Source: Podarcis vaucheri
Taxonomy: Eukaryota
Strand: one strand, 5' to 3'
Length of the DNA: 64,000 bases
NCBI GenBank assembly: GCA_965113315.1
Contig: OZ220364.1
In this document: positions 4,125 to 56,830 of the stretch, piece by piece
How the letters are laid out: each line of letters opens with the position of its first letter
Numbering within the stretch: position 1 is the first letter of the stretch
Program-made: the position numbers and the translations under genes
The notes under the pieces: generated by a model
Database searches by the model: none
What the model was told of the DNA's origin: nothing
The model's input: only the letters and a program-made list of their open reading frames with translations

Positions 4125-4850
4125 ATATGTTGTCATCATTCTAAAGATGACTCCACCCCCATAAGACCATTAAGTTCACAATCTGAAATTTCCTAATGGC
4201 ATTGCTGCATGGGCTATATGAAGCACTGGAAAATCCCGTGATCGCTCTCATTGGCTTGGCTGTATCACATTTGCATCTTGAGTGTGTGACCCAAGCTTTA
4301 TTGTTGTCATTTAATTCATTTCCTACTGTAATAATCTAAAAATAACAAGGTGGCATGGCATGCTGTCCTCTGGTCATGATTCAGCAACAGAGAACTTAAC
4401 GAGACAAAAAACAAAAACAAAACCCCACCAGAGTCCAACATCTGATCTTGTTATCAAGGTCATGGAGTACATAAAGGATTGAATTGCCATCTGCGATCTA
4501 CAATTTCATAACAAGATAAGGAAGGTGATTGGGGCCTTCCATGTGTGTAACTCGTAATAGCATGGGCCACGATTCCACAGAAAAGAGCACACCATGTTCC
4601 CCAGGGTTTGGCAAACACCAGCACTTGCCAATGGTTGCTGATTGTAGGACACATCTGCCATGAGCATTTGCATTTCCAATGTGAGTCTCCTCAGATTCAA
4701 TAACAGATTCGGTAATGGATACTAGAACAGAGACTGGTATCTTTATATTATATGGTTTATTTATACACAGATGAGTTCAGATGCAAAAACATTTCAGCCA
4801 GACAACAGTACTAGAAGAGGACATGGAGCAGAATGTGTGAGGTGTGTTGT
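4125..4850 (+). repeat. Copy 2 of the local direct duplication
   Basis: See copy 1. Confidence 0.9.
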
Positions 4851-5849: not shown

Positions 5850-6947
5850 CTCATAGCTGAAACCATCAGAGGCACAAGGTGTACCAGAAATAAAAGGCTC
5901 CATATTACACCAAGGGGGAAAAAATCAACCTATTCAATGTTACTTATCCCACATTTCTTGAGAAACTTCTAGAAGGGCAAATGTACTGGTAAATTTTCTT
6001 TTTTTATTTATTCAATAACATCCCACAATTTAAAAAAACTACAATAAAATATTTAATTTAAAATGCAGCAGCTGTGTTTTCGTGGTTTTTTTTAAATGAG
6101 AACCAAAGAAAACAAAAAAAAAGTCTCCTTAAGGGGAGCGTCTATTTAGCTTTTCTGGAATTGCTAAGAATGGCAACAGAACACAGCACCAATCCATCTC
6201 TTAACAAGGAACAGAAAATACCTTATTTTATAAAGGTAGGCTGTAGTATAGGCAAATGAGAATGGTCATGCAGGATGGCCAAGTCTTTGGAGATGTAAAT
6301 AAGCAAAGAATAGTGATTGCTTTAAGGGGGGGACGCAAAGACAAAGCCAGTTCATAATGAATTCTGGGTAGCATAAAATCCACAAGGGGCTTTGGGTACA
6401 AAAAAGAAAGAGTATTGAGTTAAATCCCCGTTGCTAAGGGTCAAAGGGTTATTTGAGGAATTTTAATGATCAAGGCCAGAGTTTATCTGAAGTTTGTTGG
6501 ATGGTCAATCTATAATTGAAGGTCAAAAGCGTACCTGAAGTTTGGCTTATCAATTACTAGTCTAGAAATAATGGAATACATTTTGTGTAGGGAGTAAGCA
6601 AACATGACAAAATTGAGAGTCATAAAAGTTGAAACAAAACTCATCCCACCACCTGATATCCCCACCTCTGCAGGTGAGCTTTCATACAGAACTGGGTAAC
6701 ATTTTGGACTTAAACAAAAGCTCTCCTTTTAAAATTTGTAACAATAAATGTTTAAGAACTATTACTGTGTTAGATGCTTTAGATTTTAAGATTTATGTGT
6801 TATTAGAAGATGGATGTGTTCAACAATTCTAACTTGTTAGGACAAAACCTAAACGGAGTCTTGCTTTATGGCAAACAGGCAATGATCTGGATCAGAAATG
6901 GCCACCATTTTATTGATTACAGATATAGATGGATGTTTAGTGGTTTA

Positions 6948-11113: not shown

Positions 11114-12638
11114 CATTCACACCATACATCTAAAGCACATTTCCTCTTGAAAAAGAGTTCCCATGACTCTTAGGGAGAGGTGCTTTAAATGTATGGTGTG
11201 TACACAGCCCTAGGATCACTACTAAGACTCATTACAAACAATCATTTCACAACACTTTTACGAGCAATAAAAATTTCGGCATAACAAGTCATATATGCTA
11301 TCAGAGTCTTCTTAAGTTATAACATTGTTAAATCATAAAACTAGCCCATAGGCTGCAAGATGAAGGTGTTAGCTTCTGTGCACCAATCTGAGTACCACAA
11401 TTAACAGAATACCCTTATGAATTCTCCATCGTGCGAGGAAAAAGCAGTCTCTTAAAAAGACAACTCTAGTGTCAAATCTTCCACTCTTTAGAGAGCCTGA
11501 TTCCTTTGTAAATATAAACAATGCTTTAAAAATATGCATTCAATTTCATATTGGAAATGTGCATCATCATTTTATAGTTCCCATAAAGTAAACCTCAGGT
11601 GGTTATAGATACTCAGCAGGGCAGGCCGTTCCAAGTCAGCCTATGCATGAAATGATAAAGGCATATAACGAGTTACTGAACTTTGTGCTGTTAATTAAAA
11701 ACATTATAAAAAATGTGCACGGCAGGGAATACTACTTGTACTCGCAAACTGCAGAGCAATAAATATGTTCTTAGCTGTGCTGCACCTAAAGGACTGCACA
11801 ACAGTTCTGAAGAGAAAACAACACTGCAGCCTCTTACATAGAAGCACATAAGAAACTACCCTATACTGAGGCAGACCTTTCATCCATCTAGGTCAGTATT
11901 GTCTGCTCTGACTGGTAGCAGGTCTCTGGGTTTCTGACCCTAACTCTACCTGGAGATGCCAGGCTTTGAACGTGGGACCTGATCTTCTGCCATTGAGCTA
12001 CAGCCCTTCTCCTACAGCAGCACCATCTTCATCTTCTGAAGATACTTGAATTTATATATGTACTGGATTTAAAACTGTTTCCATATATGTAATTGGTTGT
12101 ATATGTTTTATTCCTTCGAGATGTTTTGTACAATATGGTTAAAACAAGGGTAGGCTTTGCTGCCACAGACTTACCATTCAAACACTGAGTGCCCACACAG
12201 CAATTGTATATGAATGAATTAATATAATTGATATAACAGTAGGCAAGTAGGCATTCTAGATGCCTGATGTTTGGCCATTGCTGCCAGCCTATGATCTTTC
12301 TGGAGGCCGGGGGCCTTAAATCTGCCCAGAGGAAGACTTCCACTTTGTTCTGGCATGGGGAACCTCTTTGACTACAGCTCCAATAAGTCCAAGCCAGCAT
12401 GGCCAATGAGCTGGATGATGAAAGTTGTGGTTCAGCAACATCTGGAGGGCCACAATTTCCCCAATCCTTTCCCTTCCCTCCTCAAACTTCAGTTGCTGCT
12501 TTCTCCCTTAACACTTGTGCTGAACTATATGGGGTCATGCACCTGCTCTGTTTCGCAAGCATGCCAGCTCAGGAAATGGTCAGGCCTTCAGTAGCCTTCA
12601 GACATCCGATAACTGGTTATCAAATCGAATCAAATACC

Positions 12639-32200: not shown

Positions 32201-35200
32201 TGGCTATATAACACGTACAAGGAGACATAGGAAGCAAGCAAACAGGCTAGAGTGATCTATACCTTGCTAAAACCAATAGCTGCTGGTACATAAATATATG
32301 TCTCTTTTTCAGTGTGGCTTTGATGTGGACCGTCTTGTTGAAAAGAAGAAAAAAGCCCTAAAGAAGAAGCAGAAGAAAGACAAGAAGGAAGCCAAGAAGG
32401 CAAAGGTGGATCATTTTCTTCTAAATTACTAATTAGTGTGTTTCCATGAAGTTTATTGTGTGTGTAGTTAATTCATAAATAATTTGAGGCAAGAAGGAAA
32501 GGCGGCTAAATCATTGTTTTCATGTGGGGACCTGTTCACACATGACACTAAGCGCACTTTTGCTAAAAGGACCTTTGGTGTTTTGTAAATACTTGCAGAT
32601 TTTGTTAATACGGTCCTAAGCCAGCCATGTTTTAACTTGGAGATAGTTACCTGTAGCCCTTCTGATGCTGTTGGACTACAACTCCCATCATTCCCAACCA
32701 CTGTCCATGCTGGTTGGAGCTGATGGGGATTGGAGTCCTCCAGCATCTGGAGGTTTACAGGATAGTTACCCCATTTTTAACCTGAAGTGAAATCCATTTA
32801 GGTGGGGAATCTTTTTCAGCACAAGGGCCAAATTCCATTTTGTCAACCTTACAGTGGCCACAAACTAGAGGTCAGCAGGGCCAGAGGCAAAAGTGGCCAG
32901 ATCAATGAACAGTAGAGTGGGTCTAGTTTCTACACATGCTCACACACCTTGCTCTATCGTGTATGTCATAGTTCAAGGACATCTTCCAGCCACAAGGGCA
33001 CAGGGTTTGAAGCTTTTTATAGAAGATGTAACTTCTCTGTTCCTTCTGCCTTCTGTTCTTTGTCCCAGAAGTAATTTATGGAGGTTCTCAAAATGTCACA
33101 TGGAGACACAATTGCTTTGAGTTTACTCGGACTTCTGTTCTGCTCTTGTTTTGGTAACAGAAAATGGCTTCTCAGATCAAAACAGTGTGTGACTCTGGGA
33201 GCAACAACCTGGCATTTGTGAATATAGATATGGAGCCAAGGGCACAGGTATTTATCAATCTGGGCACGAAAGAAAGTTGTGGTCAACATTTCCGGGAGCA
33301 GGCATTTAACATGATCATATGAGTAAAACCCATATGATGATGATGATGTTTGGTACTGTGGGGAACAATCTGGATTTGTTGTCTCAGGCACCAAAATGTG
33401 TTGGTCTGTCTCTGAGTAGACTTGCCGCAGACCTTTCATACTGTTGATAAAGTGGCTCTCCACCAGAGCTGCTAGAAAAGCTGTGGCACAAAGCCATTTC
33501 CGACCTTGGGAGGAGGTGGTGTTGTGGACCTCATGCCCCCAACACGCGTACGGAGGCTGGCTCCCAGCCCCCGCGCGATCTGGGGAATCCTCGGCCGCAT
33601 CATCCCCTGGACAGCCAATTGGCTGGCCCAGGGGGTGTGCCTTGCCTCATTTAAGGCAAGTACAGCTGAGAATCTCCCTCTTTGGCCGCTCAGCTCCTTC
33701 GGTTTCCTGCCCGCCCTTCAAGGTTTCCCTTCTGACCTTGCTATGAACCTCAGTTGGTCGCCATTAAGGGGCCTGGTAGGAATTTATTCCACTTGGCAAA
33801 TTGGCACCAGCCATTTGGTTTTTTGCCTACCTCGTAGCAAACCGTCACAACTTTCTCAGTTTTGGCGGTTAGGCATTGGTATGGGTATTGTTATGGAGAT
33901 GTATGGGGGGGGGAGCGCCATCACCTCCCCCAGATATTGAAGGGTATTCCGGTAAAGGATTCCGGGGGGGCATGGCCCCATCCAAAGCCTATGGAGGTCA
34001 GAGCCTAAGGCACGCCCTTAAGCAGTGACCCCAGGTGAGTTCCTAGTTGATGTGCATCAGCAGGGCTCACCCTGCTGGTGTTAACCCTTCCCGGTCTTCA
34101 TGCAAACAGGCTGAAGATTAGCAAAGTCCACCCCTGCTCCTTTTCCAAAAGGCCTGTGCCTGCAGCTGCAGCTCTCTGTACATCTTCTGAAAAGAGATGG
34201 GTGAATCTGCCAGTTTTGGTTTCTCTTAGTTCCTCATTTTCCCAATCTTAACTTCAATTCTCCACATTTCCACATCAGTTTGTGATTATTTTTAAAATCC
34301 TTATGAAAATTCAGCAGCATTTCAGTTTGAACTTCTAATATACGCATTTTGTATGCAATTTTGCCATATATGCAGATTTTGTGCAAAGCATATTTTCCCT
34401 AATTTTTATATTTCCCTTAATATGAATCACGTTTGTCATATTAATATAAGTGCGCTAGCATATGCATTTTTAGGCACGCTTTACTGTGGTATGTGCATTC
34501 TTGTGCATGTTGCTTGACTAAAGAACTGCACTGCGAAATTTGCAGAAGTGTGAATTTCCAAGGGTGGTTGTGTTTTGTTCCATGTAGTGTTTTGGAATGT
34601 GCAAATTAAATGTGAAATGAATTGAATTTCTCACCCACCCTTAGTGTTGCTGAGACACATTATGAGCAGAACCAACCTGAGAAAACCCAATGGCCAGAAC
34701 ACTGTTTCATGTTGGGGGGAAATACTGTGATTTTTCTTTCCTCACAGGAGCAGGGAGATGACACAGCAGCCACTGCTGCTAATGGAAGTGTGACTGACTT
34801 GGCCCCCCAAAACCAGAGCCAACCACAACCTTCTGGCAAACCCACTTTGCATTCCCTGGGACTGAAGAAGCCTCCTCTTCACTCGCTCATCCTGGACCTC
34901 ACCCCTGTCAACTTTGTGGACACCGTCTGCATAAAGACCTTTAAAAACGTAAGGAGAGGACAACAACCAGGAGAGGGACACCTGTCATGAGAGAGTTGTT
35001 CTGTGTGCAGCCAAATCTAAAAGGCAAATCTGCCTCATGAGGAAGACTCCTGGAAAGGGAGGGGTTTCAGATGGCTTGAGCTGCTTGACTTCCAGCTAGA
35101 TGACTGAGAGCCAAACTCCATGTGAGGTTAAATGCAGCTTTGCATCTAAACCTGTAGGTTTCTTAAAATGCAGACGGCACCAGCTGAAGGTGCTGTGAAG

Positions 35201-40092: not shown

Positions 40093-42774
40093 TGAATGGA
40101 AGTCTGACCTGAGAAAGATTTCATGTGAAAGAGCCCCACTGGAATGGGTGGAATGTGCTGGCGCCCACCTCTTAATTTGTTTTAGATATGTGGAATCTTA
40201 TATATCAAATGTCCTTGCCCATTTTGTGTGAGGTATACATTTAGCAGAGTGCGACTAACAACTGATGTAATTGCAGAAAATATTCCGGACATACATTTTT
40301 GTTCTGCCTGAGTGCTGTTCCGGTTTTTTTAAGCTTTGCTAAACTACATTCACTTCAGAAGAAATCAATGAATGCAAAACCCGAACCCCAAGGTCAAGAA
40401 AAATGTAAATATGTACAGATTTTACTTAGGAAAACTCTTTTAAGAAATGATATACTATGTCCTTTATTATTGTTGTTATAAATTTGTGGGGGACCCCCCA
40501 AAACCCTAAAAATTAATAAATGGTAGGTTTTTTATTAATGGATGAAAGTACAAGCTGCAAGACTGTGCCAAACCAGGAATCCCTGGGCTGGTTTATGCAA
40601 ACCAGCCTGGCTGGCCTAGTGAAGAGTAAATCTGTTAAAAGGGGTTAATGGGCCATCTGAGAGGAATCCATTGACTTGGGGAGACAGACGCTGCCAAGGC
40701 GTGGGTGTCTGAGGTGACAGGAAAAGGGAGTCTGGTAGCAAGGGGTTCTGGGAAAGAAAAAGAGGAAGAAAGGCTGGGATCCATCTTTGGGGAGGCTGCC
40801 TGCAGGCTGGATGGGAGAGATGCCTTAGACTCCAGGGCTGCACTTCTGCAGGATACAAGCCTCTCTTGAAATGACCATGCTTGAAATGACCAAAATCTGG
40901 ACTCCTGCCATGCAGACTGAAGGTGTAAATAGGTGAATAAACTGTATTTCGTAAAGCTATGATTGTTTCTGCCGTGTCTCAATTCTCCAGAGGACCACAG
41001 ACTCTGGGTGACTGCCTGGAACCCCATGGACTCTTGCCACCAACTGACACACACATAGAGAGAGGCACATAACTTTTGTAACATTATTTATCACTTATGC
41101 AATTTATGGTTCCCATCATACCAAATTGTTTCCAGAATAATCTGCCCAAGTATTAGGGCAGAATGGAACAGCAGTTCATTCTCAGATGCATTCAGAGCAT
41201 GGTCAACAACTAATGAGAATTTTAGACATCGCGTGTAAAATAAGTTAACATTTCAAATCTAAATAATGAAATGAATTATTATCCAAAAGCTGCTAATTAC
41301 CATAATGGCCAAGTCACACATGAGTCTCTATGGTTTAGGCACAGATTGGTCCAATGCACAGCCCAAAGGCCACATGTAGCCCTGTGTAGGGAAGTTTTTA
41401 ATGACTGATGTTTTAATGTATTTTTTATCTTTTGTTGGAAGCCGCCCAGAGTGGCTGGGGAAACCCAGCCAGATGGGTGGTAGAAATAATACATCATCAT
41501 CATCATCATCATCATTTATTATTATTATTATTATCTGCAGCCCTCAATGCCTTTTTTGTGGCCCTCAGTAACATTTGACACACATACACCCTTGTGCTTC
41601 CTTTCCAAAGCCGGGTATGGAGGCACTGGGCTTTGGGAAGGCGGCATGAGGGCTCTGACAGAGTCCTAGAGTTCTCCTGCCTGTTTCCCAATGCCTAGTT
41701 AGCAGTTTCCCAGCTTTGGAGAGGAGCTGGGAGGGCTCTGGGACTCTGCCTGAGCCTAGAGCCTCCTTCCCAAAGCCCAGAACTTCACTTAGCCAGCTTT
41801 GGGAAGACAGCATGAGGGTTGGGTGCGGGGGCGTCAAACTTTGGGCTTGCTTCCCCCCACCCCCGCCACCACCTCCACGTGACAAGGCTATGAGCAGCCT
41901 GCAGGTTCCATGTTGAAGTACCCTTGCGGCCATCTTGGTATGAAAAGCTGGGTTTACACATCACCCCCAAAAAGGACTAAACAAGACAGGGATTTGCACA
42001 AAATGCTAATGAATATGTATATATGCAAATTTAGAATGACTATAACTCAAATAACAATAAATCCATCTCAGCATAATGGGGAAGGCTGTGAGCTGTGTGG
42101 CAGCTCAATCTGCTGTCCATGAGCTTGCTGTCAATGGGCAACTTCAAGGCCCCTCCTGTCCCCCTTCTTATGGCAGAGCAAAACATTTGGCACCAGCTTG
42201 TCTGCAGGAGTTGGCAGAACGAGGTGTACGAGGCGCCATCCCACCAGATTCATGTAGGGTTTACTCTTTAGCATTTTCTTCTCCTGAAGATATCCCGCAA
42301 GGCAGTGGGGATTTAGGATCAGAGTTTTCCTTCTGGTTGTATCATGGCCATGGAAGGGGAAGCGAGGCTGCTTCATGGCTCACCATTAAAGGGTACCTTC
42401 TGGTACAGAATAACATGCCTTGTATCTCACAGCTTGAAGGATAACCCTTGGTTGCCCTGGATGGAAGACAGAGAGGGGCGTGCGAAGGTGTACACACAAC
42501 AGGCAAGTAAAAACTAGCTGACTGGACAATGGTAACGTTCACACCCATTGCTCCGCCCACTTTTGCTTCTTGCCCCGCCCACAACTTACAAGTGGCCCCA
42601 AGCAGTTGCCAACAAGGGAATGTGGACCTCAGGCTAAAAAAGGCTCCATGCTTCTGCTGTGCACAAGAGAGCCTGATTTAGTTCAATATAACTTTCGTGG
42701 CTATATGGGATTGCAGATAAACAATGTAACTGTACTATTAATGTTTCAGTGTTAGCAGTTGCTAATGCAGAAAT

Positions 42775-45700
42775 CATGGATCACTGCCTTGCCGTGGCGA
42801 AGGGGCTTGAATAACTCAGAGAAGCTATGAACTATGCCGAGCAGGGCACCCAAGATGAACAGGTCATAGTGGAGAGTTTTGACCAAACGTGATCCACCTG
42901 GAGCAGGAACCGGCAAGCCACTCCAGTATCCCTGCCAAGAAAACTCCATGGACAAAGACAACAGGCATATAAAAGTTATGACGCTGGAAGATGAGCCCCT
43001 CAGGTCGGAAGGTGTCCAACATGCTACTGGGGAAGAGCGGAGGACAAGTACAAGTAGATCCAGAGCTGATGAAGCGGCTGGGCCAAAGCCGAAAGGACGC
43101 TCAGTTGTGGATATGCATGGAAGCGAAAGGAAAGTCCAATGCTGTAAAGAAAAATATTGCATAGGAACCTGGAATGTAAGAACCATGAACCTAGGTAAGT
43201 TGGATGTGGTCAAAAATGAGATGGCAAGAATAAATATTGACATCCTGGGCATCAGTGAGCTAAAATGGACGGGAATGGGCGAATTCAGTTCGGATTACTA
43301 TCATATCTACTACTGTGGGCAAGAAACCCGTAAAAGAAATGGAGTGGCCCTCATAGTCAACAAAAGAGTGGCGAAAGCTGTACTGGGATGCAGTCTCAAA
43401 AATGATAGAATGATCTCGATACGAATCCAAGGCAGACCTTTTAACATCACAGTAATCCAAGTTTATGCACCAACTACTGGTGCTGAAGAAACTGAAATTG
43501 ACCAATTCTATGAAGACTTACAAGACCTTATAGAAGTGACACCAAAGAAGGATGTTCTGCTCATTATAGGGGATTGGAATGCTAAAGTAGGGAATCAAGA
43601 GATAAAAGGAACAACTGGCAAGTTTGGCCTTGGAGATCAAAATGAAGCAGGGCAAAGGCTAATAGAGTTCTGTCAAGAGAACAAGCTGGTCATCACAAAC
43701 ACGCTTTTCCAACAACACAAGAGACGGCTCTACACATGGACATCCCCAGATGGGCAACATCGAAATCAGATTGATTATATTCTCTGCAGCCAAAGATGGA
43801 GAAGCTCTATACAGTCAGCAAAAACAAGACCTGGAGCTGACTGTGGCTCAGATCATCAGCTTCTTATAGCAAAATTCAAGCTTAAACTGAAGAAAGTAGG
43901 AAAAACCACTGGACAGGTAAGATACAATCTAAACCAAATCCCTTATGAATACACAGTGGAAGTGAGGAACAGGTTTAAGGATTTAGATTTGCTGGACAGA
44001 GTGCCTGAAGAACTATGGGTGGAGGCTCGCAACATTATACAGGAGGCAGCAACTAAAACCATCCCAATGAAAAAGAAATGCAAGAAAGCAAAGTGGCTGT
44101 CCAACGAGGCCTTACAAATAGCGGGGGAGAGAAGGCAAGCAAAATGCGAGGGAGATAGTGAAAGATACAGGAAATTGAATGCAGATTTCCAAAGAATAGC
44201 AAGGAGAGACAAGAAGGCCTTCTTAAACGAGCAAAGAAATAGAGGAAAGCAACAGAATGGGAAGAACCAGAGATCTGTTCAAGAAAATCAGAAATATGAA
44301 AGGAACATTTCGTACAAAGATTACCATAATAAAGGACAAAAGTGGTAAAGACCTAACTGAAGCAGAAGACATCAAGAAGAGGTGGCAAGAATACACAGAG
44401 GAATTATACCAGGTAGTGTGGTTGCTGACCTTGAGCCAGACATCCTGGAGAGTGAAGTCAAATGGGCCTTAGAAAGCACTGCAAATAACAAGGCCAGTGG
44501 AAGTGATGGTATTCCAGCTGAACTGTTTAAAATTTTAAAAGATGATGCTGTTAAGGTGCTACACTCAATATGCCAGCAAGTTTGGAAAACTCAGCAGTGG
44601 CCAGAGGATTGGAGAAGATCAGTCTACATCCCAATCCCAAAGAAAGGCAGTGCCAAAGAATGCTCCAACTACCGCACAATTTCACTCATTTCACATGCTA
44701 GCAAGGTTATGCTTAAAATTCTACAAGGAAGGCTCAAGCAGTATGTGGACCGAGAACTCCCAGAAGTGCAAGCTGGATTTAGAAGAGGCAGAGGAACCAG
44801 AGACCAAATTGCAAACATGCGCTGGATTATGGAGAAAGCTAGAGAGTTCCAGAAAGACATCTACTTCTGCTTCATTGACTATGCAAAAGCCTTTGACTGT
44901 GTTGACCACAGCAAACTATGGCAAGCTCTTAAAGAAATGGGAGTGCCTGATCACCTCATCTGTCTCCTGAGAAATCTCTATGTGGGGCAAGAAGCTACAG
45001 TTAGAACTGGATATGGAACAACTGATTGGTTCAAAATTGGGAAAGGAGTACGGCAAGGCTGTATATTGTCTCCCTGCTTATTTAACTTATATGCAGAATT
45101 CATCATGCAAAAGGCTGGGCTGGGTGAATCCCAAGCCGGAATTAAGATTGCCGGAAGAAATATCAACAACCTCAGATATGCAGATGACACAACCTTGATG
45201 GCAGAAAGTGAAGAGGAATTAAAGAACCTTTTAATGAGGGTGAAAGAGGAGAGCGCAAAATATGGTCTGAAGCTCAACATCAAAAAAACGAAGATCATGG
45301 CCACTGGGCCCATCACCTCCTGGCAAATAGAAGGGGAAGAAATGGAGGCAGTGAGAGATTTTACTTTCTTGGGCTCCATGATCAGTGCAGATGGTGACAG
45401 CAGTCACGAAATTAAAAGATGCCTGCTCCTTGGGAGAAAGGCGATGGCAAACCTAGACAACATCTTAAAAAGCAGAGACATCACCTTGCCAACAAAGGTC
45501 CGTATAGTAAAAGCCATGGTTTTCCCAGTAGTGATGTATGGAAGTGAGAGCTGGACCATAAAGAAGGCTGATCGCCGAAGAATTGATGCTTTTGAATTAT
45601 GGTGCTGGAGGAGACTCTTGAGAGTCCCATGGACTGCAAGGAGATCAAACCTCTCCATTCTGAAGGAAATCAGCCCTGAGCGCTCACTGGAAGGACAGAT

Positions 45701-45958
45701 CGTGAAGCTGAGGCTCCAATACTTTGGCCACCTCATGAGAAGAGAAGACTCCCTGGAAAAGACCCTGATGTTGGGAAAGATGGAGGGCACAAGGAGAAGG
45801 GGACGACAGAGAATGAGATGGTTGGATGGTGTTCTTGAAGCTACCAGCATGAGTTTGATCAAACTGCGGGAGGCAGTGGAGGACAGGAGTGCCTGGCGTG
45901 CTCTGGTCCATGGGGTCACGAAGAGTCGGACACGACTAAACGACTAAACAACAACAAC
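42775..45958 (+). mobile_element. BovB (RTE clade) LINE, full length, frameshifted
   Basis: APE endonuclease (GTWNVRT, GISELKW, GDWNAKVG, NQIDY, SDH) at 42879-44348 and RT (QGCILSP, YADD) at 44382-45947; 3' end ..GAGTCGGACACGACTAAACGACTAAA(CAA)n; TSD AATGCAGAAAT at 42764-42774 and 45959-45969; frame breaks near 44232 and 44410. Confidence 0.96.
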
Positions 45959-48980: not shown

Positions 48981-49919
48981 GAAAAATGTTTAAAATGGAC
49001 AAAAACAGATTTCTTGTCTCCAAATAACCCTGCTCACATAGTAAAAAGAGGTTTCCAGACTTCTGTAACAATAAGCAGCCCAAAGAGGACCCAAAGTGCT
49101 CAGCAACCACAGAATGTGGCCTGGCTGTTGTGGGAGGGAACGGAAAATCAGGAGAGGGGCCAGATGGAATGGAATGGAATACCCTGGTAGAGGGCATAAA
49201 ACACTGAGAGGGCAGCACATATGTTGGGATGGACACTTTTTTTTGAACAGGCCTTGGGCAAGGTGGCAGTGAGATCAGGGCTGTGTGGTTAAACCGGCAG
49301 AAGAGCCGTATTGCCCCAACCTCACCATTGCCCTGCCCCCAGCCCCATCCAGGAAAGCAGGAGCAGCACAAGTGTCAGGATGGTGGCTTCATAGCTCCAT
49401 CTCACTAAACACAGCCACCACCAAATCCTGAACATCAATGCTCCACGCTGAAACATCATGTTGCGTGTCAAAACCCCTCCCCCAGAAAGAAAGACACAGG
49501 ACACAATGTTTAAGTTTAATGGGCATGAAATGGCCACAACTTTATTGATTAGAGAATTGAAGGTATTGGCCCTAGGCATTGGCTCCTATCCGCTACCCGG
49601 CATGATGTCCGGGAAGGGTTAACACTAACCGTGGGAGGCCCCCGTTGGAGTACGCCAACTAGGATCCCACGGGTGTCACCGCTTGGGGCGTGCCGGGGGC
49701 CCTTACCTAGGTAGGTTTCGGACAAGACAACGCCCCTCGGAGTCCTGTACCGGACTACCCCATTTCCTGGGGGAAGGTGATGGCGTTCCTTCCCCCCCAT
49801 CCATTTGCATAACAATTGTACCCCAGCCAATGCCTAACCGCCATTCGAGCAAAGCTCGCCGCCAATACCTTCAAACCTGTAACCAACTCCTATGCCCTGC
49901 TATGGAAACCCCTGAACCC

Positions 49920-50452
49920 AGGACCTAATCCCCGTTCTGATATCACCCAACCATAGGTCGTTCCCTGCATCTGACAGATGCACGCCATCCCTTCTGTAGA
50001 GGGCCTCGTTGCTGAACTGGATGCCCGGGTGTCTGATGACAAACCCGCCCCAGAGCTGCCACTCTACGTTCCACCGCTCGTTCCGAAACCTTTCTCGCCT
50101 TGTTGACTCCTACTGGGCTCACGCCATCTCTCCATGTCCTTCTCGCAAACAACGAGGACCAAATTATTGTGATAAGTGGGTTTGCTATTACCACCTCAGA
50201 TCGATCGCCTTGCGATAAGCGAGATCGTTTTCCCCAATTGAATCACTAGGGCGTCAGGCGGACCCTCGGCCGCAGCCCTGGCCATCACAGCCGGTTTGCT
50301 TTCACTCCAGCGCATCCCTCTACGCGCTATTCAAACCAGCTCCACCCTGGGATGTAAACTCAGGTTGCCGCCCAGACCGCTTCTCAAGGCATGAAACTTG
50401 GCCCAGTGCACGATGCTGTGGCCCACCAACCAAATGCGCAATCTCGTGGGTT
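49920..50452 (-). pseudogene. Decayed SGNH/GDSL hydrolase ORF4 of the Ngaro-like element
   Basis: Manual translation: RIWLVGHSIVHWA (block I), RGMRW (II), PDALVIQLG/NDL (III), IIWSSL..R, RDGVHLSDAGN (V, DxxH). Interrupted by TGA at 50331-50333, TAA at 50188-50190 and frameshifts near 50232 and 50050. Confidence 0.85.
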
Positions 50453-50501: not shown

Positions 50502-51392
50502 TCACAAGTTGCTTCTCACATAGGCCTTGTACGCGTTAGATTTCCACCTCCCCAAGTCTTTAATCCTCTCCGTGGGGAGCCCCATATGTACTGCAGTGGT
50601 GGCTGCGCCAATACGGAAGGAGTGAGCAGCAAATTCTGATGCCGGGAAACCACAAGCCGACAATGCCGACCGCATAACCCTAGTGAACTGGTGTCTAGTA
50701 AGGCGGGATCCGTCCGCATGTATCAGAAGCGGACCGGGTCCGCTAGGCCTTAGGTAAAGAAAACGCCTCGTGTCCCGAACCGGACAAGGGCCCTTCCCGA
50801 GAGCTGCCGGCAGCCGGAGCAGGGCCCCCTTGCCCTGCTGATCTGTCTTTGAGCTCCGCACCCGCACTATGAGATCGGTTCTAGAAAGGGTCAGGTCGCT
50901 CATCAAGATTCCCCTCTGAGACTGGGTGGCATCTCCTTCACATACTACCTCGCCTACACGTAGGGCGCCGAAGAAAGCTATGGAAAACGCTGTTGAGAAT
51001 AAACGCGCTTCGTGCTTTGACCAGCAAATTTCACGAAGAACTTTGTGAATCTTAAACAGAATTTCATAAGTTACGGGCCGCCTCCTGTCCGCACATGGGG
51101 GTTGCTGTCTGCGCCATCCCTCCAGAGTTTTGCGCACAATGAAGGCTGCGCAGGGGTCTTTCTCGAAAAATGTTTTACAAAAATACGAGATCCCTGCTGA
51201 GTGAATATTGAGTGTCTTAGGAGCCCGGCCTAACTCCCTCATGTGTGCCAAGTAGTGGAGGACCTCCCTGGTTGAGGGAGTGGTGTGACTACTAGAGCCA
51301 GGGATGCGTGCGCGAAATCTTAAAAAATCGACCCAAGCCTTCTTATACGATCTCATTGTGGACGGGGCCACTGCACCGAATACTCCCTTCAT
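50502..51392 (-). CDS. Tyrosine recombinase ORF3 (296 aa)
   Basis: N-terminal SAM-like region (STMRSYKKAW); catalytic set FFGALR(R), SKTDQ(K), HSFR(H,R), GRW(W), AYKAY(Y). Confidence 0.92.
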   Translation of the reverse strand: MKGVFGAVAPSTMRSYKKAWVDFLRFRARIPGSSSHTTPSTREVLHYLAHMRELGRAPKTLNIHSAGISYFCKTFFEKDPCAAFIVRKTLEGWRRQQPPCADRRRPVTYEILFKIHKVLREICWSKHEARLFSTAFSIAFFGALRVGEVVCEGDATQSQRGILMSDLTLSRTDLIVRVRSSKTDQQGKGALLRLPAALGKGPCPVRDTRRFLYLRPSGPGPLLIHADGSRLTRHQFTRVMRSALSACGFPASEFAAHSFRIGAATTAVHMGLPTERIKDLGRWKSNAYKAYVRSNL

Positions 51393-52552
51393 TATGTCTC
51401 GCTCCCAATCCTCCAGAGATGCTCCGGGAAAGGCATCGATGATTGGTCCGCTTCTGGCGCTAACGAGCGGAAGCGCTCCATCTGAAAACGAGATAGAGCG
51501 TCCGCGATGTCATTATTAATGCCAGGCACGAATTTGGCTGAAAAGTAAATATTCTGTTCTAAACACAGAAGGACAAAAGCGCGCAATAGATTACCCACTC
51601 TGGTGGACCGTGCAGATTGCCTAGCAAGGACCGCTACCACTGCTTGATTGTCGGTGTTAAAACAAACCCTGCGATTACGAAATAGACCCGCCCACAAATG
51701 CACCGCTACGACAATCGGGCTGAAAGATTCAAAGGCTGCACATGCAACGGAGCAGCCCATGGGCATAGCCTTGTCAATGAAATACGCGCCGTCAAATTTA
51801 AAGCCCAGCCATTTAAAGTCGTCTGGGTGAACTGGGAGAAGACGGAAGGCGGACTCGATGTCGCATTTTGCTAGGAACGCCCCCTGACCGAATCGACGGA
51901 TCATTTTTACAGCCCGATCGAAGGAGGCGTATTTCACTGTACAAAGCTCCTGAGGAATCGCATCATTAACAGAACCCCCTCTCGGGTAAGAGAGGTTGTG
52001 AATCATGCGGAATTCCCCCGATGCCTTCTTTGGCACGATGCCCAGCGGGGAAAGGTGAAGCCCCTGAAAAGGCGGTTCAAGAAAGGGACCTGCAACCCTG
52101 CCTGCCCTGATTTCCTTCTCTATTTTCTTTCTGACTATGTCGGGCCGTTCCCTAACAGATTTTTGGTTATCCGCCTCCCTGGAGTTGGGTGGGGTGGCCA
52201 CCGGGATCCTAAATCCCGTAGAAAACCCCTCCCAGAGGTATTTACCCGCGGTTTTATCTGGGTATTGTTCTAATAGGACTTTGAGGGGCTGCAGGCGAAT
52301 AGGGGAGAATGCCAAACCTAGGTCAGTGTTACTGGCGATTGCCGGGACCTTGACGGGATGCACCGGGGGCACCTCTGGGATTGTTAAGGAAGTACCCCCT
52401 GCCCCCCCGAAAGGGCTGAGGCTTATTTTTGAAGCACGCGGAAGCGGGGTGATTACCCCAGCATTGCTCGCATTCATGTAGATACTTACAAGAGGGGCGA
52501 GAGCACACGCCCCTGTTGAACTCCCAGCATTGTCGACGCTTCTTTGGCTCAA
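51392..52552 (-). pseudogene. RT/RNase H ORF2 with in-frame internal deletion of the YxDD core
   Basis: SPLGIVPKK..FRMIHNLS, KCDIESAFRLLPVHP, MPMGCS followed directly by late RNaseH (PIVVAV..TDNQAVV..PGINNDIADALSR); no YxDD anywhere. Confidence 0.85.
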
Positions 52553-53897
52553 TCTTACCCACTTTTTCTGCCTCCTGACTCTTCTTCTCGATGTAAGGGT
52601 TTACATCCTCGCCCCAGTAGTTAGGATCTGTGAGGTCCCATCGAGTGGTGGGGTGGAGAGAGGCATTCCTCCGGAAGTTCTCGTCGTACGTCAAAGCAGC
52701 GTTTTCACCTGCCAGGGCCCGAGCTCGCCTCACATGAGCCTGGTAAGCTACTAAATCCATGGCGCGGTGGGGGTAAGCTGCGCAAACTACACCCATGAAA
52801 ACCTGGTACCCGTCTAACCAGTTCTCAAATGTGCGCTCCGCCCTGGGCGATCTATATTTCCTTCTACCATAAGAGCGTCTTTTTTCACCTTTTCCTGTTA
52901 TTTTTGTTGGGGGGAGCAGGGTAAACATATCCACGTAATCCCCGTTGAGGATCTTATTCCTCTTCCTATGTGACAAGTGGTTTCCCAGAATGAAGTCTGT
53001 GGGCTGATTGGTAGCAACCTTAACGTCCTCTACCAATGTCCCATCCTTCCAATACAAAACCCCGTTAAAAACCTTTCGGTGGGAATTGGCCCTCCTTTCA
53101 TGAGCCCAAAGGGGGATCCCATGGTTGGACTCCCCAATACCCCAATAGCCATCCATTGGCCCTTCAGAATCAGAATCTGAAGAGGACGTACCTGATTCCT
53201 CCTCCTCGGTGTCCGAATGCCTGCTCCTCTTCTTTTTTGCCGACGTGTGCTTCTTTTTGGACTTCCTCTTACCCCCTTGTGGCACGCCGGGAGTGGCGTC
53301 GGCCAATGGCTGAGATGGCTGATTCTCCCCCAGTTCCCCTTCGGAACCAGAACCCGCGCTGTCCTCAGTGGAACTGCGCGCCTGCTGCTCCTGAAAGGCA
53401 CTTGGTATACCTATAGCTTGAGAGATGGTGTTACTGCCGCTCCCTTTTCTGGGTGCCTTCCCCTTACCTTTGCCCTTTGCTGGGGCCTTGGCTTTACTGG
53501 TAGCTTGTGTTGCTTTTTTAGAGCGGGCGGACTGCGCCCGCGTACCGGGTCGGCCACTAGCTACGGCAACGGGCTGAGCACCGGCTGTCGATGCAGCCGC
53601 CTGGGCACCGGCTGCTGGTGGGACCGATTGTGCCCCAGCCGTCACTGTAGCCGAGGGCCCTGACAGCCCCTGGTTGGAGGGGGGAGTATCAGGTATTACG
53701 TCCTGCGAAGGCTCTAGAGCGGGCAGCGCCGAGGACCCTGGTCTACATTGCCTATAAAGAGTTTCGAACATCCTGAAAAACTGTTGTAAAGATTGAGGAT
53801 CATAAGGTAAGGCTGAAGCCTGCGCGCCCCCATTACTTGTGGAGGGGACCGGCTGGTCGCCGCCAGTGGTGGACTGCTGATTTTCTCCGGAATCCAT
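52329..53897 (-). CDS. Gag-like ORF1 of the Ngaro-like element (522 aa)
   Basis: Low-complexity basic/acidic N-half, YDENFR..RWD motif, C-terminal CCCH+CCHC fingers (CWEFNRGVCSRPSCKYLHECEQCWGNHPASAC). Confidence 0.85.
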   Translation of the reverse strand: MDSGENQQSTTGGDQPVPSTSNGGAQASALPYDPQSLQQFFRMFETLYRQCRPGSSALPALEPSQDVIPDTPPSNQGLSGPSATVTAGAQSVPPAAGAQAAASTAGAQPVAVASGRPGTRAQSARSKKATQATSKAKAPAKGKGKGKAPRKGSGSNTISQAIGIPSAFQEQQARSSTEDSAGSGSEGELGENQPSQPLADATPGVPQGGKRKSKKKHTSAKKKRSRHSDTEEEESGTSSSDSDSEGPMDGYWGIGESNHGIPLWAHERRANSHRKVFNGVLYWKDGTLVEDVKVATNQPTDFILGNHLSHRKRNKILNGDYVDMFTLLPPTKITGKGEKRRSYGRRKYRSPRAERTFENWLDGYQVFMGVVCAAYPHRAMDLVAYQAHVRRARALAGENAALTYDENFRRNASLHPTTRWDLTDPNYWGEDVNPYIEKKSQEAEKVGKIEPKKRRQCWEFNRGVCSRPSCKYLHECEQCWGNHPASACFKNKPQPFRGGRGYFLNNPRGAPGASRQGPGNRQ

Positions 53898-54125
53898 GAC
53901 TGCTGAGCAAATTTAGAATGTGTAAGCAAATCAGATACTATCCGCAAAACCTGAGGGTGTATGTGGCTGCAGGGATATTATTAGCTAACTGCCTCCCGCA
54001 GATGGGAGTCTGTCAAGTTCAGTACGTTCTACACTGGCAGGAGCTTGGGAGAAGGGATCCGCCTTCTAAACAATTTCAACTTGTTTGTTTATTTATTTAT
54101 TTATTTATTTATTTTTATTTTATTT

Positions 54126-54884: not shown

Positions 54885-55170
54885 TACTAGGCAAATAAGC
54901 CAACCTGATAGGTACACAACCACAGAATAAAATAACTAGGAATTAAATCACAGGCTGCTGCCAAATTACAGGAATAAAATAACTAGAATTAAGTAATTAA
55001 AGGAACAAAATAACTAGGCAAATAAGCAACCTGATGAGCACACAACCACAGGCTGCTGCTGAATTAAAGGAATAAATTAACTAGGAATTAAGTAATATAA
55101 GGAACAAAATAACTTGGCAAATAAGCTACCTGATAAGCACACCATTACGGGCTGCTGCCAAATTAAAGGG
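54885..55170. repeat. Imperfect tandem repeat, ~3 units of ~110-130 bp
   Basis: GGCAAATAAGC..ACCTGAT..CACA..GGCTGCTGC..AATTA recurring at ~54888, ~55016, ~55125. Confidence 0.8.
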
Positions 55171-56169
55171 CTAAAGGAGCGGGAGAAGGACGCACGGAGC
55201 GACAGCAGGCGAGGGGAGGAATCGGCTCCAAAGAGCAAGGAGGTTTAAACGAACCCCACAGAGAAGGGAGACCTGGCAAGCGTGTGTTACCCTTTCCAAG
55301 CGCAGGATCGAGATTCCAGCTCCAGCAAAGACAGAGGTCCCGCTAGTGATTTCAGCTCCGGCTGAAGGTGAGGGCAGCTGAACGCAGTTGAAAAAAAACA
55401 AATCCCACGACGCTTGAACAGGCTTGAGGAAGACCGGGTAAGAGATCAAAACCTCTCAGCTGGTCGGGAGTGAAGAGGGCGGACCCTGGGCGTGCCCGGC
55501 TTAAAATACCTTAAGCCACGCCTCCCCCCGGCCCGCCGATAGGCGGGCGGGGTCGCGAGCACGCCCAGGGATTCCCCCAACTCTCGCGGGGGCCAAGGTT
55601 AGCCCCCGCGCTTGGGGAGGAGGGGCTAGACCGCAACACCCTCTCCTCCCTATAGTCGGAAATGGCTTTGCAGGTCCCACTGCCTTGAAGAAACTTTTGT
55701 GCAACAGGTGGATGGGGGGGCATTTTAATAATCGTTTTAATATTTTCCCGTTTAGATTAAAATGAGGATAGATGACTTTTTAGAAGTTTGATTCTATAAA
55801 ACGATCGCTTTCCCCGTTTTTAGCTGCTTTTATTTTAGCAGTAAGCCGCTTTGAGTCCCTGTCAGGGGAAAAAGCAGAGACGAAATTAGGCTTTCTTTCA
55901 CCCTGTTCAAAGACCCAATTTGGAACCCCCTCGTTATAAATTCTCTCTCCCGGGACGGCGGAAGATTTTACCAATGGCCTGTCCATTTAATGAGGTGGGT
56001 TCTTTTTTTCTTCAGCCTCCCTTTCTCTGACTTTTTATGTTTAAGAGAAAGAATTAAATCTTAGGAAACACACAAGCAGGCGGTCAGATTCTGGGCTAAC
56101 TTTGAAAGAAACTGCATGGGCTTCTGCCCTCATAGAGGTAGAAGATTCGCCAAAAGCACTGCTAGTTCC

Positions 56170-56830
56170 TCTTGACACACTTCCGGTCTAAAATGGAACA
56201 AGTTCTCCACTCAGGCTTCCCATGCAAGGTATAGGCCTCTTCCCTCAAATGACGCAAGCGAGCGACGCCCATGGAGAAGCCCCTGACCAACGGCGGCCTT
56301 CAATCTTTTACCGTAAGTTTAGCCTGTGTGTGTGACTCTTAACTCTTTCTTATCTCTCTCTGGTGACTCCCCCTTTACGACGTCTACGGGTCCTACCATC
56401 TTTCTCCTGCGCATGCGGATGTCTTGCCTCATCTCTGATTCCCCCCCCTTCCTCCTCCCGCGCATGCGCTCTTCCCTCTCCTCCTGCCGAGCTGCCGGGG
56501 TTAAGGCGGCAAGATGGCGGCGTCCTCTGTGTGCCGGGCCGCGGGTTGTGTGGCCAGCCGGGCCCTTCTTCGGGGTCCTCACGCTCCGGTGAGTGCCTGA
56601 CCGGGTGGGCCGCTGACGGGGTGGAAGAGGAGGAGGAGGAAGGGGCGGCGGTGGTGGGCAGAGGGGGAGCGGACGAAGCGGGGAGTGTGTGCGGAGCCCG
56701 GGGGGAAGCCGCTCGCGAAGGTCACGGCGCCCGTCCAGGCCGCCCATTTCACCAGCCGGGCGAGGCCTAGTGGCTGAGAGCTGCCGGCGATGGAAGCGCA
56801 AATCGTGACATTCTACAGATACCGTGGGTT
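56170..56830 (+). promoter_or_regulatory. UQCRC1 CpG-island promoter with NRF1, ETS/GABP, CRE-like and YY1 motifs
   Basis: GC/CpG-rich. GCGCATGCG twice (~56409, ~56460; NRF1), CACTTCCGG at ~56178 (ETS/GABPA), TGACGCAA at ~56250, CAAGATGGCGGC over the ATG (YY1). Typical of nuclear respiratory-chain genes. Confidence 0.8.
56514..56588 (+). CDS. UQCRC1: UQCRC1 exon 1
   Basis: aagATGgcg start in CpG island, gtgagt donor. Confidence 0.92.

Follow-up and report, generated by a model that had tools for sequence, protein, structure and literature searches.

Retrotransposons of the Ngaro type carry a tyrosine recombinase (YR) and are laid out as A1-ORFs-B1-A2-B2, according to the available text of PMC9210276. 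In DIRS-1 the cDNA is described, in the text available, as single-stranded, mostly linear, antisense and usable for integration; the same source records that YR specificity has not been investigated experimentally and that amplification of a circle junction failed (PMC7192593). The attC site of integrons, as set out in the accessible parts of PMC2727003 and PMC5027507, rebuilds a YR core by the folding of one strand, and only that strand is exchanged. The cores are inverted sites 6-8 bp apart (PMC2727003), and G.T pairs and a purine skew favour the recombining strand (PMC5027507). Our literature search, which did not take in the founding Ngaro paper and which an earlier mention may have escaped, found no description of a hairpin at a Ngaro junction and no paper in which attC, integrons, DIRS and retrotransposons occur together; nor was such a hairpin found in the available text of PMC3783388, PMC13465315, PMC3266345 and PMC4157794.

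The window analysed here is the whole stretch of 64,000 nucleotides from the lizard Podarcis vaucheri. On its minus strand lies an element that we identify with high confidence as a defective derivative of a Ngaro-type YR retrotransposon. It reads gag, RT/RH, YR and then an SGNH hydrolase, and the best relatives of its recombinase are found in lacertid lizards, at 87% identity. The element and its relatives within the window comprise the following features.

55460..55677, minus strand: A repeat (A1), a predicted junction half-site plus putative structured promoter, homologous to 33482-33705 and upstream of gag
52329..53912, minus strand: gag-like ORF, 527 aa from stop to stop, its C-terminal part matching the ORF upstream of RT in related loci
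51392..52600, minus strand: RT/RNase H ORF, RVT_1 at E 0.0031, RT catalytic motif missing
50502..51509, minus strand: tyrosine recombinase ORF, open, with the catalytic R, K, H-x-x-R, W and Y columns conserved
49915..50438, minus strand: SGNH/GDSL hydrolase ORF, broken by a stop and frameshifts; tblastn with P0038 at E 2.8e-21, in three pieces
49861..49900, minus strand: pre-B segment that, by its pair probabilities, is predicted to base-pair over the poly(A) signal and mask it
49472..49843, minus strand: B repeat, with AATAAA at 49546-49541, a GU-rich tract at 49507-49486 and a predicted right end at 49483-49472
33482..34103, plus strand: diverged solo unit of A (33482-~33705), spacer (~33706-33862) and 3'-truncated B (33863-34103), with no ORFs
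6895..6923, minus strand: remnant of the B poly(A) region, 26/29 nt identical to 49555-49527

The RT/RH and YR frames share 51392-51509, which leaves no space for a methyltransferase, and a Pfam scan of the element's ORFs found no methyltransferase family and no match for the gag-like ORF. The RT/RNase H ORF has undergone an in-frame internal loss of roughly 600 nt: the RT and RH blocks abut here and are ~640 nt apart in the related locus L001, and the absent catalytic motif is present in P0009. The hydrolase query P0038 carries a Lipase_GDSL_2 domain. The predicted structure of the recombinase (pLDDT 94.9) has a Cre-like fold, with IntI (2a3v) ranking 44th and Tn1549 Int also among the matches. 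Self-comparison of the window revealed neither an A2 or B2 belonging to the element nor a terminal inverted repeat joining its two ends. Membership of the DIRS1-like group was rejected, as there are no inverted terminal repeats joining the ends and no methyltransferase. Because the split repeats A1-B1-A2-B2 are missing from the element and present in its relatives, it is filed as a defective Ngaro derivative and not as a complete member. An Rfam scan of the 64 kb gave 0 matches at the gathering score, and a known structured RNA or ribozyme was rejected on this basis.

Several other features lie around the element. Roughly three 99-bp tandem units occupy 54886-55175 within its long 5' UTR. The first exon of a host gene (56514-56591, plus strand), with a CpG island and a mitochondrial-targeting-like start, stands head-to-head with the element, its first codon ~840 nt from the element 5' end. 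A young LINE at 42870-45947 (plus strand), its endonuclease and RT split over two frames, is presumably RTE/BovB-like, judging by its motifs. The tile that folds most strongly for its GC content in the window is 41601-41800 (residual z -5.4), which is probably a MITE-type inverted repeat.

The initial annotation had proposed eight helices in the A repeat and the copy at 33482, one containing a TATA-like sequence. Seven of the eight are perfectly Watson-Crick paired (all five in the element, two of three in the copy), while 33604-17/33620-34 requires a bulge, its arms of 14 and 15 nt making only 9/14 pairs when ungapped. The TATA-like sequence, TATTTTAA at 55508-55501 on the minus strand, does lie inside hairpin 55518-55497. 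The downstream part of the fold contains the following elements.

55585..55610, minus strand: second hairpin domain, GC-rich, mean pair probability 0.97; copy counterpart 33547-33575, with 8/9 pairs kept
55484..55570, minus strand: three-way junction of a closing helix, hairpin 55548-55531 and the TATA-containing hairpin 55518-55497, with pair probabilities of 0.85-0.98
55501..55508, minus strand: TATA-like TATTTTAA, 21 nt before the pyrimidine initiator-like CCCTCTT (55479-55473)

The counterpart of the three-way junction in the copy is 33590-33670, where CATTTAA at 33648-33654 (plus strand) likewise stands 21 nt before CCCTCTT, so that the spacing is the same in 2/2 copies. The left boundary of A1 at 55677 is predicted from the 7-nt spacer rule of related elements and is uncertain by several nt; the same rule places the start of the copy at 33482. 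The minimum free energy is -124.4 for the element A repeat (z -5.89) and -100.8 for that of the copy (z -5.35), with 0/200 dinucleotide shuffles as low in either case. The adjacent 5' UTR and two CpG-island tiles, used as controls, gave z between -1.4 and +1.1, and among 319 window tiles only 1 and 4 had a lower GC-corrected energy than the element and copy regions, respectively. As double-stranded DNA at the left end the A repeat would be a promoter, to judge from its TATA-like box and initiator-like tract. A palindrome, GCATGCGC, recurs in the A repeats of related loci L008, L010, L011, L013, L015, L018, L025, L029 and L041; we take it to resemble an NRF1 site, which would be consistent with A being a promoter.

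How far is this structure conserved? The copy (plus strand) and the element (minus strand) agree at about 62-72% of aligned columns, the figure varying with the gap penalties. Our two-copy test kept the identical columns and shuffled the divergent positions of the copy, using global pairwise alignments at five gap settings; a MAFFT two-sequence fold, which avoids gaps there, missed the 5' domains. The copy folds at -100.5 compared with -75 +/- 4.5 after shuffling (0/200 as low in 5/5 alignments), and the consensus energy has a z of -3.9 to -5.4 (0/200 under all five gap settings). There are 9-11 double-sided changes, against 4.5-6.2 in the shuffles (matched or exceeded in 0, 0, 3, 1 and 8 of 200). 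Of the 9 listed, about 7 are robust to the alignment, one being discounted because it closes a 2-nt loop and another because it depends on register, and 6/9 fall in the three-way junction. The claim that structure is conserved where sequence is not thus holds up, and, as far as two sequences can tell, the A-repeat structure is co-adapted.

The hairpins proposed as common to both copies are kept beyond the matched null, the copy retaining 8/12, 6/7, 6/7, 8/9 and 5/8 pairs across the five element helices, with the exception that 55615-22/55643-50 is the least conserved of them (5/8). At the 5' end the two-copy consensus contains instead hairpin 55672-55658/55646-55632, which forms in both copies and is mutually exclusive with 55615-22/55643-50. 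The latter is an element-specific alternative hairpin and not the conserved terminal one. Including its spacers, the terminal hairpin has 11 Watson-Crick, 4 G.T and 1 A.C pairs in the element, and 12, 3 and 0 in the copy. The consensus favours the sense strand (RNA -80.3 compared with -64.3; DNA -37.2 compared with -27.3), with 10 G.T cells on that strand against 3-4 on the antisense; this preference is absent from the single-sequence minimum free energies of element and copy. A search of the window with nhmmer found only the two known copies of A and B, to which blast added the 29-nt remnant.

A one-pass scan of a genome collection gave 53 related loci labelled as bacterial or archaeal MAGs, most of which carry gag/RT/YR elements; they are probably contaminants from hosts. 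Those in GTDB representative MAGs (L009-L048; e.g. CBDBCZ, OZ2200, CBDAUV and CBDBMG) lie on contigs that reach 2.8 Mb and contain satellites as well as retrotransposons of animal type. Loci L049-L051 (64-70% GC, without an RT match) were not treated as Ngaro. Ten relatives with both ends have the layout A1-ORFs-B1-A2-spacer-B2, with split direct repeats seen by self-comparison. At L010:925-1827 the repeats run in tandem as B-A-spacer-B-A-spacer-B, the A-spacer-B unit being exactly duplicated. Within the 53 loci 13 junctions were located, nine by repeat layout alone, three by B ends, and that of L015 after the motif was known.

All 13 share one B1|A2 arrangement, box-7 nt-box-variable loop-box-6 nt-box. 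The boxes are TTAA, the outer and first inner boxes being inverted repeats 7 nt apart. The whole forms a two-stem hairpin with a 7x6 internal loop, in which the inner stems are mostly free of bulges and the outer stem is made by the B end pairing with an arm ~30 nt inside A. Pairing extends over 85.4% of 240 cells compared with 69.8 after shuffling (0/500 shuffles), a shuffle that ignores relatedness, though most branches are long; slid registers of the alignment are 23-45% paired. Double changes occur at 13/19 pairs, in 42 cells, and covariation is seen also in the spacers and as far as 5 bp beyond the boxes. A model of the junction recovered the held-out L028 (45 bits) and L031 (28 bits), both of which pair, together with several left ends. 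The sense strand folds lower in 11/13 junctions, and 82% of the unpaired spacer bases are purines. G.T outnumbers A.C by 19 to 5, or by 6 to 5 once the invariant T.G column is set aside.

Insertion breakpoints coincide exactly with the edge of the outer stem. At all 13 B2 ends the element terminates 0-3 nt past the outer TTAA, with 0-5 of the 7 spacer nucleotides and never the full spacer, and 9/10 A1 starts begin with the element's own 7-nt spacer. A 50:50 resolution of two strands would give at least 9 of 10 with p about 0.011 (binomial). No target duplication was found at the insertions of relatives examined. The exception is L029, where A1 lacks the spacer (4805-4830) and the right flank (11608-11650) matches it at 4/7; this is possibly the product of the reciprocal strand. 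In nine relatives the A repeat taken as a whole folds only weakly (sense z +0.3 to -3.4), and thus a long downstream array is not general. The junction hairpin, by contrast, is general in the clade of YRs with verified junctions, and as a structure in these relatives it is well supported.

Does the lizard element possess the same site? The parts of a half-junction can be assigned as follows.

55671..55677, minus strand: predicted 7-nt 5' spacer, facing a 6-nt 3' spacer at 55633-55628, the 7x6 geometry of the 13 related junctions
55634..55670, minus strand: conserved terminal hairpin (junction inner stem), 55670-55658 with 55646-55634, with G.T pairs on the sense strand, in 5/5 alignments
55616..55627, minus strand: outer-stem arm, complementary to the element's right end at 49483-49472

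In the copy both members of the pair 55671/55633 are changed. The arm makes 12 contiguous pairs (2 G.T) with 49483-49472, which lies 69 nt past AATAAA and at the predicted offset. A 12-pair match to the arm occurs at 3/127960 window positions, one of them the arm's own complement; a looser duplex-energy test in which the register was not fixed gave only 4.5%. When the two element ends are co-folded as separate strands the full stem-loop-stem forms, and the three lizard junction helices contain 9 G.T and 1 A.C. With A alone, hairpin 55615-22/55643-50 is preferred by about 1 kcal/mol (RNA), and helix probabilities place the arm, in the absence of B, back in pairing with 55650-55643 or 55578-55573. 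These alternative partners are a possible off-switch at the integrated left end, as modelled. The arm of the copy has a 10-bp partner inside its own B (33964-33975) and none at an end, the copy's B being truncated.

There is no contiguous B|A junction in the window, where the model built from relatives found nothing. In a YR tree of 46 sequences, unrooted and without named Ngaro, DIRS or PAT references, the window YR is separated from all verified-junction YRs by a 100/100 branch, at 30-34% identity. Within its own clade, two-stem hairpins precede the spacer start in L004, L006, L012, L023 and L026; there the junction position could not be fixed, and an alignment gave no common pattern. The boundaries of the lizard element rest on one element. 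On balance we consider it likely, with less assurance than for the relatives, that the junction hairpin applies to the window element.

The B repeat is also strongly folded (z -4.2), its homology to the copy beginning at 49843/33863. The AAT of the poly(A) signal has probabilities of being paired of 0.93/0.88/0.84 with the pre-B segment and 0.06/0.06/0.12 without it. The segment has an 11-bp partner at 49506, which 11/127978 window positions reach, self included; the richness of the GU-rich tract is matched in 131/18274 stretches. The long helix 49900-49486 (minus strand) is therefore, on modelled pairing, a candidate switch between B1 and B2 polyadenylation. Masking of the signal by a segment that only B1 has would be sensible if B2 once followed. 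B seems to start at a short TGGC-type motif (49843 and 33863 in the window; after the SGNH frame in L001-L006), which in SGNH-bearing elements is preceded by a B1-specific hairpin. A further hairpin, GTCATTTA...AAATGAC, recurs inside B of relatives (L022:6675-6745, L023:4545-4590, L026:6440-6480 and L012:4745).

The unit at 33482 looks like a solo A-spacer-B from a diverged subfamily. Its B stretch is 75% identical to 49843-49600 and starts abruptly, and its middle (~160 nt) resembles neither the 5' UTR of the element nor the pre-B region. A reading frame there is spurious and without homologs; sister copies sought through it gave 28 candidates, none of which scored. Searches for a B1 end preceding the copy (183/300), for an A2 downstream of the element's B and for similarity beyond the 29-nt remnant gave nothing significant, and in an empty-site test through window repeats neither flank pair shared a repeat across the insertion. 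A C-rich tract opens the spacer after A2 at L011:11485, L025:11599, L029:11246, L030:11829, L041:11685, L046:11200 and L004:2608, and a similar one follows A in the copy at 33707-33717. The A-ORFs-B and A-spacer-B of the window would be two deletion products of an A1-ORFs-B1-A2-spacer-B2 parent.

The explanation we place first, with confidence and doubt in equal measure, is that the A repeat is a promoter as duplex and, once folded, an attC-like sense-strand substrate of the YR. Here the junction structure is a computational one, and its role in recombination is what we infer from it. The first 60 nt of A would provide three quarters of the junction hairpin, the remainder being supplied only where a B end stands before A, as would arise at B1|A2 or where two cDNA ends meet. 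The B end would pair with arm 55627-55616 as the outer stem, followed by the 7x6 loop and then the inner stem 55670-58/55646-34, and the folded sense strand would thereby mimic a duplex YR core site. The YR would cut at the edge of the outer stem and exchange that single strand with a target that need share no homology, in the manner of IntI acting on attC. At an integrated left end, with B absent, the arm would fold back into the 55615-22/55643-50 hairpin and the site would be off. The outer stem may also join the two cDNA ends, the task of the ICR in DIRS-1. YRs cut at the 3' edge of the bound arm and hold a 3' phosphate; the break observed at the B end is the position of such a cut on the sense strand, which supports a sense-strand cut. 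The single-stranded cDNA of DIRS-1 and the precedent of attC likewise favour a folded sense-strand substrate, although this model requires the sense strand where the single strand of DIRS-1 is antisense.

The initial annotation had supposed that the hairpins, if they lie upstream of a TATA-defined start, would act on ssDNA or on read-through or circular RNA. For the 5'-most hairpin ssDNA is backed by the covariation, the 12-bp arm match and the position of the break. There is also an ordinary third case: in the Ngaro layout the stretch of A lying before the TATA box is transcribed in A2, and since A recurs as A2 inside the transcript of an intact Ngaro, read-through or circular RNA is not needed. 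The downstream hairpins, including that with the TATA-like box, would form in the A2 copy, whether RNA or cDNA; their most likely effect would be to hold the GC-rich promoter in a fold of its own, clear of the junction arms. The role of the second hairpin and the TATA three-way junction is the weakest part, these being probably a self-sequestering structure or an A2 RNA signal. For the full single-strand recombination mechanism our confidence falls at or a little short of the halfway mark. More tentative still is the general proposal that Ngaro integrates in the manner of integron cassettes, whereby the ends pair, a Cre-like YR exchanges the sense strand with an arbitrary chromosomal site and replication resolves the product, with split repeats rebuilding the site, a fold-back switch inactivating it at the integrated left end, and deletions at the junctions giving the A-ORFs-B and A-spacer-B forms.

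The junction might instead be an ordinary double-stranded YR site, its four inverted boxes co-evolving with the YR and integration proceeding without homology like that of Tn916/Tn1549, and the pairing might then be a by-product of symmetry, the other hairpins acting only in RNA. The 7-nt separation of the outer and first inner TTAA is within the canonical 6-8 bp spacing of YR cores (PMC2727003, available text), the standing model in the available text of PMC7192593 has a double-stranded circle, the recombinase has a Cre-like fold with Tn1549 Int among its structure matches, and L029 could be a reciprocal product. Yet the outcome is one-sided, in 9/10 left ends and 13/13 right ends, the covariation enters the spacers and passes up to 5 bp beyond the boxes, and the lizard helices accept G.T and not A.C, a distinction invisible to a duplex; we consider a duplex site, and equally a by-product of symmetry, unlikely. 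Slightly less probable again is that all the folding, the junction included, works in RNA at B1|A2, in packaging, RT pausing, template switching or suppression of B1 polyadenylation. The sense-strand helices are G.U-rich, A2 is in the transcript (PMC9210276, available text), and B is itself strongly folded with its poly(A) signal masked only in the B1 context. Such a role sits poorly with insertions that break exactly at the outer-stem edge, where YR chemistry predicts a sense-strand cut, and with a fixed 7x6 geometry and four conserved boxes that resemble protein-DNA spacing.

The ends of the lizard element could also be drawn differently, at an 8-bp direct repeat (55666-55659 and 49534-49527) through which it would integrate by homology, the arm match being due to chance and the hairpin having another role. 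In DIRS1-like elements recombination takes place at a short motif that is shared (PMC3266345, available text), of the 7 copies of the 8-mer in the window 4 stand at element ends, and the similarity of the remnant near 6900 stops right after it (p 0.45-0.92 downstream). But the 12-bp arm match, the 11-bp pre-B pairing and the GU-rich tract all lie beyond 49527, and four more upstream bases are common to both copies and pair inside A, making this boundary improbable. Least credible, to the point of near dismissal, are hairpins that are incidental palindromes of a GC-rich promoter (GC boxes, a CCAAT-like palindrome, TATA) with no single-strand role. The regions are indeed 68% (element) and 61% (copy) GC, only two copies were compared, and a palindromic site of CCAAT type forms the copy hairpin 33612-33625; that site and the GC boxes are presumed from their motifs. 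Against this, z is about -5.5 where GC-matched CpG-island tiles give -1.4 to +1.1, the matched covariation null gives 0/200, and a nested three-way junction is kept with changed sequence. The folded sense-strand substrate thus remains the reading we prefer. Were it wrong, there would still be a well-folded Ngaro terminal repeat, of modest interest. Were it true, this would be a eukaryotic and independently evolved structure-specific recombination in which ~6 kb is inserted without target homology. Folded single-strand recombination would then extend beyond bacterial integrons and similar phage systems, and would run in animal genomes with a Cre-like enzyme. With a substrate (55-70 nt), a strand and a cut position now named, the question of integration becomes one for an oligonucleotide assay.

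Among known elements the closest are the Ngaro-like DIRS-53_XT and DIRS-54_XT of Xenopus, which as described in the available text of PMC9210276 share the order gag, RT/RH, YR and SGNH and the lack of a methyltransferase. The A repeat is ~220 bp here and 236 bp in DIRS-53_XT, and loss of split repeats is common in the Xenopus copies, as in the window element. The window element differs in that A and B are its only repeats, its RT is deleted and its SGNH is broken; terminal secondary structure is not described for the Xenopus elements in that text. The unit at 33482-34103 resembles the solo AB repeats of Cafeteria Ngaro (PMC8547959) and SIRE of VIPER (PMC6681497), which in the text available are likewise A-short unique middle-B without ORFs, and differs in being 3'-truncated and from a diverged subfamily. 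As with the ICR of DIRS-1, an internal complement of the element end would bring the termini of ssDNA cDNA together. Unlike it, the complement in the window is an arm of 6-12 nt inside A, within direct repeats, where the accessible text of PMC7192593 and PMC3266345 describes a separate ICR of 40-90 nt and inverted terminal repeats.

The most instructive comparison is with attC, taken from the available text of the papers cited. Both have two antiparallel core sites around a variable loop, with an outer stem, an unpaired spacer and an inner stem (PMC2727003), and in both G.T pairs and a purine skew point towards one strand (PMC5027507). In both the sequence is free, the structure is kept and the crossover is on one arm only. 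The stem-spacer-stem arrangement is present in the relatives as a contiguous junction, and in the window only by the pairing of two separate ends. The junction lacks the R-box consensus and the extrahelical bases of the L arm, having TTAA or GC-rich boxes, and the lizard arms differ again; its single unpaired extra base is at the crossover, while that of attC is in the inner stem. Its two halves sit at opposite ends of the element, and it is a computational prediction. It belongs to a eukaryotic retrotransposon whose enzyme is a Cre-like YR and not IntI, with no attI, Pc or cassette array. By analogy the junction would work like attC, but it is not an integron.
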